From: Thermoproteota archaeon
Lineage (GTDB): Archaea > Asgardarchaeota > Jordiarchaeia > Jordiarchaeales > Freyrarchaeaceae
Assembly: GCA_029258835.1 (NCBI GenBank)
Contig: JAPDJY010000076.1
Span: 1 to 52,812, forward strand
Direction: 5' to 3'
DNA: 52,812 nt
The notes beneath the pieces were generated by a model that saw only the letters and a program-made list of their open reading frames with translations, was not told the origin of the DNA and made no database searches. Below are positions 1,543 to 7,701 of this stretch, piece after piece. The first letter of the stretch is position 1. Every line of letters begins with the position of its first letter. A program made the position numbers and the translations under genes.

Positions 1543-2340
1543 GTGGATTTGATAGGAGATGGAAGTTACGTGCTGATTATTTTAGATGAGAGGAGGAGGT
1601 GGCTTGTGAGGGTGGAGGAGGGGAAGAAGCTTCATACGCATAGGGGGGTCGTCGACGTCGGATGCTTAATAGGTAAACCCTATGGCTGTATTATCGAAAG
1701 CAGTAAGGGTTACAGGTTTTACGCTGTGAAGCCAACCCTAGCCGACTTGGCTATTAAGGCTAGGAGGGCAACTCAGATTATATATCCTAAGGATTTGGGG
1801 TTCATCCTTCTAAACCTTACCATAGGGAGGGGGAGCATCGTGGTTGAGGCTGGCACCGGCAGTGGAGTGCTGACTGGGGTGCTGGCAAGCTGGGTCATGC
1901 CGGAGGGCAGGGTTTACAGCTATGAGGTTCGGGAGGAGTTCCTAGACGTGGCTAGGAGAAACCTGGAGCGTATGGGCGTCTTAGAGTATGTTGAGCTTAA
2001 AAACAAGGACGTGGTTGAAGGGATAGACGAGGAGAACGTGGACGCCGTCGTGCTCGACATGGCAACCCCCTGGCTTGTTGTAAGGCACGCTTACAGGGCG
2101 CTCAAGCCGGGGAGGGTCATGGCATCCTTCAGCCCCACGATAGAGCAGGTCCAGAAAACCGTTTTTGAGATGGAGAGGGAGGGGTTCATCGACGTGAGAA
2201 CCTACGAGTGCTTACTAAGAGACGTGATAGTTAAGGAGGGGAAAACCAGACCTGACACCTTCATGATAGGGCACACGGGATACATGACGTTTGGACGAAA
2301 AATTGTAAGGAGTTTAGGGGGGGAACAGCTTGGCAACTAG
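1543..2340 (+). CDS. trmI: tRNA (adenine-57/58-N1)-methyltransferase (TrmI/Gcd14)
   Basis: RATQIIYPKD, EAGTGSGVLT SAM motif, DAVVLDMATPW, FSPTIEQV, HTGY; start GTG 1543 preferred over 1489. Confidence 0.92.
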   Translation: MDLIGDGSYVLIILDERRRWLVRVEEGKKLHTHRGVVDVGCLIGKPYGCIIESSKGYRFYAVKPTLADLAIKARRATQIIYPKDLGFILLNLTIGRGSIVVEAGTGSGVLTGVLASWVMPEGRVYSYEVREEFLDVARRNLERMGVLEYVELKNKDVVEGIDEENVDAVVLDMATPWLVVRHAYRALKPGRVMASFSPTIEQVQKTVFEMEREGFIDVRTYECLLRDVIVKEGKTRPDTFMIGHTGYMTFGRKIVRSLGGEQLGN

Positions 2341-3117
2341 GTTTTTTAGTGTCCCGATTATTTTGTCACGTCTCCCTGCGAAGTCCGAACCGTAGGATAC
2401 TACGAGATCCTTGCCTTCCACGGACACCCTAGCAATCGGGCCTTCGGATGACTCGAACTCGAAGACAGGGCCCGCTTCGCCCTCCTTGCGGCTAACGAAA
2501 AGCACCGGGAACTCCTCTGTTAGGATGTTAAAGAGGAGGCCCAGTTTAACTTTGCCGACGAGTTCAGGATCTATTAATGGTGACTCCACAGCCGCCGGTG
2601 TGGGATGCTGCTCCTCTAAGGGGGGAGGTACCGCCTCTTCGGCCTGTGCTTCCACTTGCTCGGGCATCACCGCCTCTTCACGCTCGGTTTCGGGTGGGTG
2701 TGCAGGTGGCGAGACGGCTTCTGGTGTTGGGAGGGTTACTTCCACCTCGGCGAGAAACTTATCCTTTAACTTGTATGGCCTCTTGAATAGGGAGTTAAGG
2801 GCAGCTAGCTTTTCTTTCGCTTCCGGCTCTGAGAGGCTGGACTCGTCTATTTCAACCATTTCCCCGAGGCCGTGGCCAACGTGGAATTTCCCGTAGGCGA
2901 AGCCGGACTTCAGGATCGACTTAGCCACCCTCATGGCAGCCCGCTTATCTACCAAACTCCTGTTTTTCCCCATCCAAAAGTAAAGTTTCCCGTCCAGCTC
3001 GTCTATGACCACCACTAAAGAGTCACTGTTAATGGCGTCTTGACTGAAGGGGATCGGGGATTTTTCGCCAGGCTCCACTTTAACCATGAGCATGTATTTG
3101 GGGATGGAAGCAACCAT
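2314..3117 (-). CDS. Gelsolin-like domain protein with Pro/Glu-rich linker and C-terminal unknown domain
   Basis: N-terminal INSDSLVVVID..KLYFWMGKNRSLVDKRAAMRVAKSI matches the gelsolin repeat pattern (LxSxD..D..iyiWxGK.s..k..A..A). Confidence 0.7.
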   Translation of the reverse strand: MVASIPKYMLMVKVEPGEKSPIPFSQDAINSDSLVVVIDELDGKLYFWMGKNRSLVDKRAAMRVAKSILKSGFAYGKFHVGHGLGEMVEIDESSLSEPEAKEKLAALNSLFKRPYKLKDKFLAEVEVTLPTPEAVSPPAHPPETEREEAVMPEQVEAQAEEAVPPPLEEQHPTPAAVESPLIDPELVGKVKLGLLFNILTEEFPVLFVSRKEGEAGPVFEFESSEGPIARVSVEGKDLVVSYGSDFAGRRDKIIGTLKNLVAKLFPP

Positions 3118-3410
3118 AAAGCCACCTCACAAGCTTTAAACCTAAAATCCTCCTTCACACCTTAACAAGCATTAACAATTACAATTTGGTTTTAGTATTA
3201 TTTAAGGATTAACTGGAGTTCTCGGAGGAGGACACTACCCCCTCCACATTACCCTTAAACAACTGGTGAAGGGTGAACGCAACCAACATGGCAGATCTTT
3301 ATGGGGGGGAAGCGAGTTCGTTGGTGGCTGCGTGAGAGGAAGCCTGTTTCAGGCCGGAGGAGAGATCATAAGACGTGTGAACTCCAAAAAAGGAGGGTGG
3401 GTGATGGATG

Positions 3411-5019
3411 TCAGGAGGCGTCGACCGTTTTCACGGTTTCCTCGCTGGCGACTCCTCTCCGCCTCCTCCGCCATTCCTCAACTGGAATGCTGAACTGCTT
3501 CTCAACCATTGGCCGGTGGATCGTGTTGTAGGTACAGAATGGGATTATCCGCCCATCAGGTGTGCCGTAGTGGATAACGCAGCGCTCAACTCTGGCAAGG
3601 TCGAGGTTGTATGGATCCTGAAAGTGCATCATCCCGATCAAGATTACGCTACGCATGAAGTCTCCTAGCGCGTTATAGTTCGCTGAGGTAAGGACGCGCC
3701 TGAAGAGGCTGAACATGAGACCCTTCTTCTTGAAGAAGCGGAGCATTCCCATGGCAACTCTCAATCTGCCTTTAAGCTTCGAGAACCACCCGCCCTGAAA
3801 CTCCTCAGCACACTTCTCGAAGGTCTCCATGATCCTGTCGACGTCGACGTAATGGGTGATTGGGTAAAACTCGCCGTCACCCTCCACCCGGATGAAAGTT
3901 GCCATGCCGCAGTGCACGTGGTTGCCGAACTCCACCATGGGTCTGCCGAAGTAGGCTGAGAGAGCCCTAGACAATGGGGTCGGGGTCGTACAGGGGTAGA
4001 AGTCGGACGTCTTGATGCGCCCTCCAGTCTGCTCCTCGCAAGCCTTGATGACTTCTGGGATCGTTATCCGCATCTCCATCCTTTTGGATTCATCGATCCT
4101 CCCTGTGATGCTTACTGGCTGGAAGATTATGCCCCGCACCACGTCATAGTTCTCAACGGCAAAACGTATGATATCGCCTATCTGATCATCGTTAACGCCC
4201 CTAACAACCGTTGGGACCAGTACTATGGAGTGGAGGCCCGCCCTACGGCAGTTCTCGATAGCCTTAAGCTTTAACGGGAGAAGGTTGCGTCCTCTAGCCT
4301 CAAGGTACGGCTCAGGCGTCACACCGTCAAACTGCATGTACACCGTGCTGAGGCCAGCCTCCACCAGCTCACGGCAGTAATCAACGCTCTCTGCAAGCTT
4401 CAAAGCATTAGAGGCGATCTCAACGTGGGCGAACCCGACCTCCCTAGCCATCCTTATAAGCTCAGGGAGGTCCTCCCTGACGGTAGGTTCTCCACCAGCA
4501 AACTGAACAGCGGGGGCTGGGACGGGAGCATTACGTCTGAAGTTTTCAAGCATGAACCTAATCTGCTCGGCGCTGGGCTCATACACATAACCAGAAACCG
4601 CTGCGTTAGCAAAACATATTACCCCACGCGGAACCCGGATGGAAGTAAGCGTCCTCCGGGCAACATCGCGTGTTTGGGCATCGCAGATTACACCGGTTCG
4701 TTACATCGATGAGCGCCAGTGCAGTGTAGGTTTTATGGTTTGTACATAGCCCACAGTCAAAGGGGCATCCTTGACGGGCTTCCGTTCGGGGGTTTTCTAT
4801 TTTAACCCTGTTATAATTCCACTTTGTGACTTTCCTGTAGAGTTCCGCATCTCCCCAGTACACGTCCGTCACCTGTCCGTGTTCAGGGCAGGTTTTCGTT
4901 ATCATTACCTTCCCGTCTTCCTCGTACACTGTCGCATCTATTACTTTCATACACTCGGGGCATATGCTCTTGGTCTGAAAGGGGAGCTCAGGGAATTGCT
5001 CGTGCGCAAGCCTTTGCAT
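3411..5019 (-). CDS. tes: Tetraether lipid synthase (Tes/GDGT-MAS, MJ0619 family radical SAM), join(5019..4674,4618..3411), 517 aa after intron removal
   Basis: SICPEC..KTCPEHG, CPFDCGLCxxH, restored CNLRCPICFAN, QFAGGEPT, HCGMA, MMHFQDPYNLD..RCVIHY..IIPFCTYN; 346+1208 nt = 518 codons including stop. Confidence 0.9.
4619..4673 (-). other. 55-nt bulge-helix-bulge (archaeal-type) intron in tes mRNA
   Basis: Central helix GCCC/GGGU, 3-nt bulges AAA and AAU, internal stems CACGCG/CGCGUG and CCCGGA/UCCGGG; cleavage after the 2nd nucleotide of each bulge restores frame and motif. Confidence 0.85.
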
Positions 5020-5281
5020 TTTACCACCACCTTTAGTGGTGTTTTAAAGAGATTTCACTTAGATGCTTATTTAATATTTTCCCGACGAAACATAATTGGA
5101 ATGGTATGAACCCGGGTTGGAAGGCTTCTTTACCAAGCTGGTTTTGCAGTGCTAGAAGAAGTGCTGGGAGGACGGGAAAAGGTAGTCTTAGGTAGCATGA
5201 ATGGTGGCGGTTCAACCCAGCAGAGCCTAAATGTGGCTGTCCGCCCCTTTTAACTATTTCATTAACGTTTCTAAAATGCTG

Positions 5282-5935
5282 TCAGCTGAAATTTTCCATC
5301 AATGAGCCTATAGTTCCGTCGAACTTTCCCCATTCGATCCTTATTCCCGCCTCTTCCGCCACTTTTTCTGCCTCCTCCCTTGTTAATTCAGGTATTTCAA
5401 TCAGGGTGAAGCCCATCTCTTCCAAGAGGTCTGGAAACCTAACTATAACTTCTTGAAGTGATTCCGTTCTACAGGTTGCTGCCACCACCACCTTTCTCCT
5501 CCCGCCGAGCTTCCCAACCAAGCCGTGAAGGTTGGCGTTTAAGTACAGTTCGACGTCGTCGAGAACTAGAATTTTCTTGCTTCTTTCAGGAAATGGGGGC
5601 ATATCACTCAGTTCAGGGATCTTATCTCTCCTAATCTTCACGACCCTGTAACCTTTCAACTTTCTTAGAGCCTCGTAAAGCATCCTAGTTTTCCCCGCCT
5701 TCCTCCTTCCAGCTATGATCACGCTCCTTCCGGAAGACAACGCATCTTCAACTAATCCATCAACATCACGCTTGTAATAGTACGGCTTATACCCTTTAAC
5801 ACCCATATCTTCAGGTGAAACATCCCCTGCATCCTTAAACAATTCGAGAAACTCCCTTGGAACGGTCAGCCTCCCCCAGACACGCTCGATAATCCAGTTA
5901 AGTACGCCATATAACTTGAAGAGAAGATACGCCAA
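5282..5935 (-). CDS. P-loop NTPase (AAA/STAND-like) domain protein, possibly truncated
   Basis: Walker A GRRKAGKT, Walker B ILVLDD, VVAATCR; ends soon after the NTPase core. Confidence 0.6.
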   Translation of the reverse strand: MAYLLFKLYGVLNWIIERVWGRLTVPREFLELFKDAGDVSPEDMGVKGYKPYYYKRDVDGLVEDALSSGRSVIIAGRRKAGKTRMLYEALRKLKGYRVVKIRRDKIPELSDMPPFPERSKKILVLDDVELYLNANLHGLVGKLGGRRKVVVAATCRTESLQEVIVRFPDLLEEMGFTLIEIPELTREEAEKVAEEAGIRIEWGKFDGTIGSLMENFS

Positions 5936-6177
5936 GGAGGTTCAACCCCCCTCGTTTTCCTAACAACCCTTAAACGGAAAAACGGAGGTTAACATTATAA
6001 GTAATAAGTGATCATGGTCTGGGGGAATATCGCCCCCACCAATCAGTAAGCTATCTATCGTTATCCAAGGTCATTAAAGGTGATGTTGAAGTAGGGTGGG
6101 AAAAATTGCGTTAACAAGAAAAGGGGGAGAAGAGTGAATAAACATTTTTATGGGAGAGTACGAACTTTCATGAGAGG

Positions 6178-7512
6178 TTATCTTCTGAAAAGCCCACGCT
6201 TTTTCTTTTCTTCTTTCTTTTCCTTTTTCTCCTCTGCTTTGCTAACGGGCTCTTCTACGGGAACCTCGGGTGGCGCCTGCTCCTTTTGGTGAATGGATTT
6301 AGTGAAGGTTCTAGCAAGTTCACCGTACCAGGAAAGCAGCTTTCCAAGGTCTGAAGCGTAGAAGTAAACGCCGCCTGTCATCGAGGCGATTTGCTGCATC
6401 AGAACCTCGTTAACCTCGCCTCCGATACCCACAGTGTAGAGCACGACGTTAGGCATCCGTGCAATCTCGTTTTCAACGATGGCCCTTACTGATTCCTCTC
6501 TATCGGTTCCTTGCGGGAAGCCGTCGGTAAGGAAAACGAGCATGGTGTTCGTCCCTTTAAACTCATTTTTAAGAATGGAAGCCGCCTTTCTTAGGGCGTC
6601 GCTCATGTTCGTGTACCCGCCCGTTTTGTATGCCACTTCCTTCAGGATCGTGTTTGCTACTTCCTCTATGTTTCCTGTGGCTGCATCAAAGTAGTTGTTA
6701 TGGTTGAACTTTATGATTTCTGCTTCGTCGTGATATGTTATTATGGCTACTTTTTCCCCATACCCTCTTCCCACCTTCTCTGCCAGGTAGAGGAGAGCTG
6801 CAAACGCTGCCCCATGCCTTCTTCTCACCGTTTCTCCTTCCTCGAATCTTGTGAGGAAGTCGGCTATGTCCTCTGAGGTTAGGAGGCTGATTATTCCCTC
6901 TCTTGCCGGTGCTATGTTTGTTACTTCCATGTCCTTAGTGCTCATGCTTCCTGAAATGTCTATTAGGAGTATTGCATTAAAGGGCATAGCCGGCCCTATA
7001 GGCACTATTTCAGCTTTCTCCATCTCCGCCCAGTTAACTATGGCGAGCTCCCTTCCCTTTAAGTCCGGTTTGGTTGCTTCTATCGAGATGTTAGAGTTGA
7101 GGTCCTTCCAGCGTATTTTCATTTTCTTGAAGATCACCCGTTTGTCCAGTAGTTTTTTAAGTTCTTTCCTTCTTTCCTGCGCTATCTTAAAGACGTCCTC
7201 AGGTTTCTGATCTCCTAGGGGTTCTATTCCTATTACGAGCTCCCTAAGAGGCTGAATTCTCCCCGCGTATTTCTCAACTTTCACTGTGAAACCTTCGTCT
7301 AGCCCACAGGATTCAACAAGGGTAGAATCTATGTGTATTGTTCCTTTTTGAACCTTTTTATCCATATATGCTGGTGCTGCTCCAAAGTTTCCTGTTGTAG
7401 GGTCTTCAAATATGATTATCGTGCCTTCAAAGATGTTTTGTGATGCAGCATCTTCAGGATTTAGAAGGGCTGCTCCTTCCCGCTCCCCTGCTTTAACTAT
7501 TTCAAGCTCCAT
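6178..7512 (-). CDS. vWA-domain protein with Cdc48/NSF N-domain-like N-terminus and Lys/Glu-rich tail
   Basis: MIDAS DISGS, T in GYTNM, VFLTDG, TGGVYF; start ATG 7512 follows RBS-like GAGGTGAGG (track starts at 7611). Confidence 0.75.
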   Translation of the reverse strand: MELEIVKAGEREGAALLNPEDAASQNIFEGTIIIFEDPTTGNFGAAPAYMDKKVQKGTIHIDSTLVESCGLDEGFTVKVEKYAGRIQPLRELVIGIEPLGDQKPEDVFKIAQERRKELKKLLDKRVIFKKMKIRWKDLNSNISIEATKPDLKGRELAIVNWAEMEKAEIVPIGPAMPFNAILLIDISGSMSTKDMEVTNIAPAREGIISLLTSEDIADFLTRFEEGETVRRRHGAAFAALLYLAEKVGRGYGEKVAIITYHDEAEIIKFNHNNYFDAATGNIEEVANTILKEVAYKTGGYTNMSDALRKAASILKNEFKGTNTMLVFLTDGFPQGTDREESVRAIVENEIARMPNVVLYTVGIGGEVNEVLMQQIASMTGGVYFYASDLGKLLSWYGELARTFTKSIHQKEQAPPEVPVEEPVSKAEEKKEKKEEKKKRGLFRR

Positions 7513-7701
7513 TTCCTCACCTCGGAAAGAAGAGGAAACATCAATAACTTTTTCTTTAAACCGAGAAATATAGTTTTTCCCGAGAAAGAAGGAGTCTTTC
7601 CCGTTATTCACGGTTCTATCCTGTTAATAATGGCTATGAATTGCCGCTCATATGCTACCTGCGTATGAGGAGACCACCCGAACCTTCTTCCTTCGTTTCC
7701 A

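Follow-up and report, generated by a model that had tools for sequence, protein, structure and literature searches.

The DNA analysed here, a stretch of 52,812 nt referred to below as the window (contig JAPDJY010000076.1 of assembly GCA_029258835.1, from an Asgard archaeon of the Freyrarchaeaceae, class Jordiarchaeia), carries on its minus strand a single gene for a tetraether synthase (Tes), laid out in two exons that are parted by 55 nt. The source is a 2.72-Mb metagenome-assembled genome (MAG) of 91 contigs, 94.7% complete and with 6% contamination, in which the window is contig C19. Exon 1 encodes an N-terminal Zn-ribbon/rubredoxin-like domain (Pfam PF23545, E = 1.9e-21) together with the first two cysteines of the radical S-adenosylmethionine (SAM) motif (CNLRCP), and the split point falls inside this motif, between CNLRCP and ICF. 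Two open reading frames (ORFs) were found on this strand, 4606..5019 (137 aa) and 3411..4586. In its unspliced form the first of them continues into ...RCPNTRCCPEDAYFHPGSAWGNMFC and ends at the TAA at 4608-4606, leaving the CxxxCxxC motif broken. Removal of the 55 nt produces one 517-aa ORF containing ...CNLRCPICFANAAVSGYVYEPSAEQIR..., and only then is the radical-SAM motif read as CNLRCPIC. The observed reading frames confirm the gene anatomy proposed by an earlier sequence-only reading of this stretch, which had described a 55-nt intron splitting Tes, an unspliced message that terminates after 137 aa with the SAM-cluster motif broken, and two exons that are otherwise intact.

The assignment to Tes follows from both halves of the gene. 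When scored against NF045702, the NCBIfam equivalog model for Tes, exon 1 obtains 157.4 bits and exon 2 494.7 bits; the curated equivalog cut-off is 450 bits, so exon 2 exceeds it alone. For the paralogue TrsS the score is just 273 bits versus a cut-off of 490. The 517-aa product expected after removal of the insert aligns without a single gap to 7TOL_A, the solved structure of the Methanocaldococcus jannaschii enzyme known as GDGT-MAS (GDGT, glycerol dialkyl glycerol tetraether; E = 5.8e-129 for the exon 2 segment), the join falling between residues 123 and 124 with nothing lost or added. By sequence, the gene is a member of the Tes / GDGT-MAS family, and tail-to-tail C-C coupling of archaeol lipids is its predicted activity.

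The 55 nt have the architecture of a bulge-helix-bulge (BHB) intron, the type removed by the tRNA-splicing endonuclease EndA. In its BHB core, a central helix of 4 bp lies between two 3-nt bulges, one on either strand, and is followed by an inner stem of 6 bp and an apical hairpin rich in GC. Read as RNA, the junction runs from U4680 through GCCC, AAA and CACGCG on the one side and through CGCGUG, GGGU, AAU and a final AU on the other (see Table 1 for coordinates). The 106-nt fold has a predicted dG of -44.6 kcal/mol (z = -3.4), and the central and inner pairs are formed with a predicted probability of about 0.9 or more up to 70 C. Cuts at 4674/4673 and 4619/4618 yield CPIC and a gap-free Tes, which is exactly the mRNA demanded by homology. 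Intron limits of 4674-4620 would give the identical mRNA as the canonical BHB cut at 4673-4619, because AA stands at both junctions. In the host genome the frequency of a BHB at this stringency is about 1.2e-5 per site and length, and the match of the insert's BHB with a junction that is defined by homology is therefore not due to chance. An E-value search of Rfam with the region 3000-6000 returned no relevant RNA family in the intron, and no C or D box was seen by eye.

Overall, the best explanation of the locus is a genuine BHB intron in the sole Tes gene, most likely a passenger that is constitutively removed, as one of many BHB introns residing in tRNA and protein genes of this genome (we put the probability of this reading at roughly 0.8). 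The narrower statement that the Tes insert is a spliced BHB intron, whatever its role, can be made with still greater confidence. We infer that cleavage and ligation take place, and do so constitutively, along the following route. In the pre-mRNA, GCCC of exon 1 would pair with GGGU of the intron, thus forming a 4-bp helix between the bulges AAA and AAU that would be stacked on the 6-bp stem and the GC-rich hairpin. A heteromeric (alpha-beta)2 EndA would cleave both bulges 3' of their second base, and the exons would then be joined by RtcB. The resulting mRNA, predicted to be 55 nt shorter and to read TGCCCAATATGT at the junction, would contain TGC CCA ATA TGT (CPIC) and encode the 517-aa enzyme, whereas the unspliced mRNA would yield a 137-aa fragment devoid of the third cluster cysteine.

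Table 1. Features of the interrupted Tes gene and its putative intron (window coordinates).
Feature	Coordinates	Strand	Remarks
Tes exon 1	4674..5019	minus	ATG 5019-5017; 115 codons + 1 nt; PF23545, NF045702 1-101, 7TOL_A 23-123
Tes exon 2	3411..4618	minus	Third Cys of motif (ICFAN...) to stop TGA 3413-3411; NF045702 103-485, 7TOL_A 124-516
Putative BHB-type intron, 55 nt	4619..4673	minus	Canonical cuts after 2nd nt of each bulge; clean insertion vs 7 intronless relatives
TAA ending the unspliced frame after 137 aa	4606..4608	minus	Sequence
Central helix, 5' strand GCCC (exon 1 sequence)	4676..4679	minus	Pairs with 4621-4624; predicted probability >=0.89 up to 70 C; kept in L099
Central helix, 3' strand GGGU (intron sequence)	4621..4624	minus	Predicted fold; G-U to G-C in L099
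5' bulge AAA	4673..4675	minus	Predicted cut 4674/4673; unpaired in minimum-energy fold; identical in L099
3' bulge AAU	4618..4620	minus	Predicted cut 4619/4618; read from sequence; L099 has AGU
Inner helix, 5' strand CACGCG	4667..4672	minus	Pairs with 4625-4630; third pair C-G to U-A in L099 (compensatory)
Inner helix, 3' strand CGCGUG	4625..4630	minus	Predicted fold; L099 covariation
GC-rich apical hairpin	4633..4661	minus	Loop 4644-4651; predicted fold
Upstream region	5021..5080	minus	Putative, from sequence: AT-rich TATA-like box AAAATATTAAATAAG at 5080-5066; Shine-Dalgarno-like AGGTGGTGG at 5032-5024, 5-13 nt upstream of the Tes start codon

The runs in which this stretch is contained are marine sediment and hydrothermal vent metagenomes, and the closest Tes loci belong to MAGs of Candidatus Jordarchaeia/Freyarchaeota (Asgard archaea). 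The insert is present in nine other assemblies (98-99.7% identical) obtained from different samples and with different assemblers (JGI, ENA, Logan). For example, the gene with its insert is contained in an 11-kb contig of X4, a metagenome from a hydrothermal vent; a JGI contig (L085) carries it in a region 98.3% identical over 9.5 kb, and so do the loci L091-L098 from further samples (98.2-99.7%). The sole intron substitution among these strains (position 4645; strain 2) is located in the apical loop, and the Tes start codon is GTG in strain 2 (X4/L085) versus ATG in the window. The possibility that the 55 nt represent a chimeric join, i.e. an artefact of assembly or binning, might be entertained given that the genome is a MAG and that in run X1 the Logan contigs are interrupted at 4670-4689. 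On the other hand, the recovery of the same insert by independent assemblies, and of a diverged homologue in a sister lineage (L099, see below), refutes it, and we regard this explanation as practically untenable.

The sister lineage is represented by L099, a 1.9-kb Logan contig of run SRR21418557, whose Tes shares 82% nucleotide and 92% amino acid identity with that of the window. It has a 57-nt intron (L099:523-579) at the same site. Canonical splicing of this intron leads to a 517-aa, gap-free protein reading CPIC, while cuts displaced by 1 or 2 nt would result in CPVC. The two introns agree in 38 of 63 aligned columns. Within L099 the central helix is kept (with a G-U replaced by G-C), the inner stem shows one compensatory change (C-G to U-A) and the CCCGG/CCGGG stem is kept; the apical loop is replaced and is 5 nt longer, and the linkers differ as well. 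Paired cells amount to 98%, as opposed to 32-55% in a control in which the partners were slid. The L099 intron is in frame, and translation through it is blocked by an internal TAA instead; the conserved property is therefore the BHB rather than the frameshift. In this respect the sequence-only reading, which had attributed the block to a length that is not a multiple of 3, holds true for the window but not as a statement of the general cause.

The same comparison bears on translational recoding, a scenario in which ribosomes would bypass the insert or frameshift over it without any RNA splicing, in the manner of the 50-nt hop in T4 gene 60. The insert is indeed short and provided with a stable hairpin. 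However, the take-off and landing codons are unmatched (CCA before the insert and GUA at its end), and with a frameshifted read-through CxxxCxxC would be interrupted by 18-19 residues. The sister intron, with its 57 nt and internal TAA, has nevertheless kept the BHB helices, which fits a signal in RNA structure rather than one for recoding. Recoding thus appears extremely unlikely as an explanation for this locus.

The history of the exons was assessed by comparing the window with L099. At a synonymous divergence (dS) of 1.36, the non-synonymous divergence (dN) is 0.042 and their ratio (omega) 0.03 (0.02 for exon 1 and 0.034 for exon 2), with zero indels in 517 codons. Between the window and strain 2 there are 20 synonymous and 5 non-synonymous differences, one of the latter being the ATG to GTG change of the start codon (P = 1.4e-9 against neutrality). 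Judging from these substitution patterns, the interrupted gene has long produced a selected protein.

The alternative of a pseudogene, in which the insertion killed Tes and the two halves are decaying, would seem to be favored by the public gene calls. In these, the gene and its close relatives (P0082, P0202-P0207) are represented only by truncated halves, a Zn ribbon of 101-137 aa and a radical-SAM domain of 380-402 aa, and in the 90% protein cluster of the window 7 of 7 members are truncated exon-2 calls. Among 5.8 billion proteins no full-length protein at least 95% identical, as would represent a spliced or an intronless form, was found, the nearest full-length one being 81% identical. Decay is contradicted by the low omega in both exons, by the intact codon alignment and the preponderance of synonymous differences between strains, and by BHB cuts that restore the motif exactly. 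Strong purifying selection in two lineages that both bear the intron therefore speaks decisively against a pseudogene, which we consider very improbable, and implies that the insert must be removed. From a practical standpoint, Tes appears in standard annotation as two separate "hypothetical" halves, and surveys relying on it would wrongly score this lineage as having no intact GDGT synthase.

Several observations weigh against the interpretation of the insert as a BHB intron that is spliced from the sole Tes gene. The outer (exon-exon) helix has just 2 canonical bp (U4680-A4617 and A4681-U4616) with a predicted probability of about 0. Moreover, the minimum-energy fold has a pair between A4620 and U4680, which displaces the 3' bulge by 1 nt and enlarges it to 7 nt. 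The weak outer helix and the widened bulge therefore assign the Tes motif, as modelled, to the relaxed type and not to the canonical one. The covariation statistics are weak, with 3 distinct intron sequences and 165 of 500 shuffles reaching the observed score. At the RNA level, the metatranscriptome contigs (X14, X19) cover 3377-3979 only and stop short of the junction, so that no spliced RNA was observed; likewise, no joints were reported in the contigs of any run, the metatranscriptome runs being confined to that same interval. Finally, no second Tes was found in this 94.7%-complete MAG, and it is possible that a second, intact copy lies in its unassembled part.

The enzymes that a relaxed BHB intron would call for are encoded in the genome. 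EndA alpha (190 aa) has the Tyr/His/Lys triad, whereas in its paralogue, EndA beta (32% identity), another residue stands in place of the His, as would suit an (alpha-beta)2 enzyme. A gene for RtcB is also present (607 bits). The substrate range of (alpha-beta)2 EndA is taken here from known enzymes and includes relaxed motifs (PMC5829648), and by analogy with these we infer that the host EndA would be able to cut such motifs. In the whole genome ARAGORN called just 25 tRNA genes, 20 of them with introns. None was called in the 52.8 kb of the window, and a multi-intron tRNA-Ser noted there from the sequence was thus not confirmed. Introns that are multiple or non-canonical probably conceal the majority of the tRNA genes from such a search. 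For Jordiarchaeia, more than two intervening sequences per tRNA gene and a two-subunit (alpha-beta)2 EndA have been described in a report that mentions mRNA 0 times (bioRxiv 10.64898/2026.10.13.758758).

Tes is not the only interrupted protein gene in this genome. The sole full-length gene for EF-1alpha contains a 43-nt canonical BHB intron (C27:28830-28875, minus strand) in its P-loop, between GHVDHGK and STL, with a CGGC/GCCG central helix, bulges AAU and AAG, a 10-bp inner stem and practically no outer helix. In hypD (C36, about 2540-2560, minus strand) a 17-nt insert, GCTTCCCAGCCCCGAAG, separates MHVCGT from HEHT, its BHB register being non-canonical as read here. A genome-wide BHB scan combined with an ORF-joining census was dropped as too unspecific (39,843 relaxed-motif matches versus 31,080 in shuffled sequence, and 729 candidates that were mostly adjacent genes).

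The EF-1alpha intron is instructive for a rival explanation, a regulatory switch, in which the efficiency of Tes splicing would vary with temperature, growth state or EndA/RtcB activity and thereby set the diether:tetraether ratio. The sequence-only reading had advanced this possibility on two grounds, that active Tes requires splicing and that the outer BHB helix is weak. The first is indirectly borne out by the cuts that restore CxxxCxxC, the presence of EndA alpha/beta and RtcB, and the omega of 0.03 at dS 1.36; the second is correct as an observation on the fold. In further support of a switch, the intron has been retained over dS 1.36, and there is a precedent in Haloferax, where the removal by EndA of the BHB intron in the 5' untranslated region (5'UTR) of HVO_1309 matters for expression (PMC7714728). 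However, the knob proposed for tuning tetraether content, i.e. the stability of the outer helix, turned out not to be Tes-specific. The outer helix of the EF-1alpha intron is equally unpredicted, the core stabilities of the two introns are similar from 37 to 90 C, and similar introns are found in housekeeping genes. EF-1alpha is an essential translation factor that cannot depend on inefficient splicing.

Nor does conservation of the intron discriminate in favor of a switch, because BHB introns in tRNA genes also persist without a regulatory role. Among the loci searched, moreover, the intron is absent from Tes of other genera in the class and of other Asgard classes, and the RNA contigs (3377-3979) do not reach the junction at which variable splicing would be seen. 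As to a dedicated sensor nuclease of the HAC1/XBP1 type, or any feature particular to Tes, just the housekeeping EndA alpha and beta were found, and the stability profile is EF-1alpha-like. Even if splicing is taken for granted, a dedicated regulatory role is unlikely, and the switch as an account of the locus is slightly less likely than that. A shade more doubtful again is a version in which the Tes intron would act as a post-transcriptional gate: with the only tetraether synthase mRNA having to go through EndA and RtcB, the synthesis of membrane-spanning lipids would be coupled to the capacity or temperature-dependence of the tRNA-splicing machinery. Were it true, an archaeon closely related to eukaryotes would possess its own equivalent of HAC1/XBP1 splicing.

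When the DNA is aligned with that of seven intronless relatives, the 55 nt stand out as a clean insertion between TGCCC(A/C) and ATATG. Tes is uninterrupted at this site in about 70 loci, including the sister genus (4 of 4 genomes), six Freyarchaeaceae, other Asgard classes, methanogens and Bathyarchaeia. By parsimony, the intron would have been gained on the branch leading to the host genus, after its split from the intronless sister genus, and it persists in at least two species-level lineages. As for the donor, blastn retrieved only chance-level matches to the intron in its own genome and in 40 related genomes, and an exact-pattern scan of the genome contigs gave no match.

The genes adjacent to Tes, both on the minus strand, encode a protein of 267 aa at 2314-3117, noted as gelsolin-like, and one of 477 aa with a vWA domain at 6178-7611. 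Neither of them is an obvious lipid gene, and both also flank Tes in the related contigs L091-L098.

In the literature searched (PMC7714728, PMC2738675), the only archaeal gene documented to have an endonuclease-spliced intron in its coding sequence is cbf5 of Crenarchaeota, and the Tes intron adds to this rare known kind of element. According to the 2020 paper (PMC7714728), cbf5 was the only case of a BHB intron reported in archaeal mRNA, besides the 5'UTR case of HVO_1309 presented in that paper itself; no later report on BHB introns in Asgard protein genes was found in the literature searched. Taken together, the introns of Tes, EF-1alpha and hypD suggest that, in this lineage, protein genes can rely on the enzymes that splice tRNAs, a point relevant to the emergence of interrupted genes, and of their processing, close to the origin of eukaryotes.

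The closest known system is the intron in the cbf5 pre-mRNA of Crenarchaeota, for which splicing has been shown experimentally (Watanabe 2002; Yokobori 2009, PMC2738675). Both cases involve a short tRNA-type intron within a coding sequence, presumably cut by EndA and joined by tRNA ligase, whose removal is needed for a full-length protein, and both have a patchy distribution with gains and losses. The differences are in the host gene and its lineage (a crenarchaeal pseudouridine synthase for cbf5, an Asgard radical-SAM lipid enzyme for Tes), in the location of the Tes intron inside the catalytic CxxxCxxC, and in splicing itself, demonstrated for cbf5 and predicted for Tes. HVO_1309 of Haloferax volcanii (Schwarz 2020, PMC7714728) is likewise an mRNA substrate of the splicing endonuclease, and its processing affects expression. 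Unlike in Tes, this intron is located in the untranslated leader, so that its splicing rebuilds no reading frame. The EndA of H. volcanii is homodimeric (alpha'2) and needs canonical BHBs.

The tRNA introns of Jordiarchaeia/Freyrarchaeaceae (bioRxiv 10.64898/2026.10.13.758758) share with the Tes intron the lineage, a presumed (alpha-beta)2 EndA, relaxed BHBs and repeated gains, but they reside in tRNA genes, whereas the Tes intron has no sequence relative in its own or the 40 related genomes. The splicing of HAC1/XBP1 by IRE1 and tRNA ligase/RtcB also removes a short non-spliceosomal intron, by an endonuclease followed by RtcB-type ligation, and alters the protein that is made. There, however, a nuclease dedicated to stress sensing makes the cuts and splicing is the regulated step, while the nuclease expected to act on Tes is a housekeeping tRNA enzyme, which makes the similarity an analogy only.

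A parallel in position is provided by the inteins that many archaeal Tes genes contain (NF045703); the intein-bearing Tes relatives P0001-P0011 are proteins of about 1000 aa with a LAGLIDADG domain. They reveal two intein sites in the same CxxxCxxC motif (window 4660-4700). At one of them the intein is inserted before the first cysteine, between DVTNR and CNLRCPIC; at the other it separates CNLxCPI from CF, a single codon farther 3' than the BHB intron. Like the Tes intron, these are self-removing insertions within the same eight residues, but they span about 450 aa, carry a LAGLIDADG homing endonuclease and are excised from the translated product by protein splicing, in contrast to the 55-nt RNA intron described here. 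With two intein sites and one RNA intron in a single 8-residue motif, Tes offers an example of conserved motifs as havens for self-removing elements.

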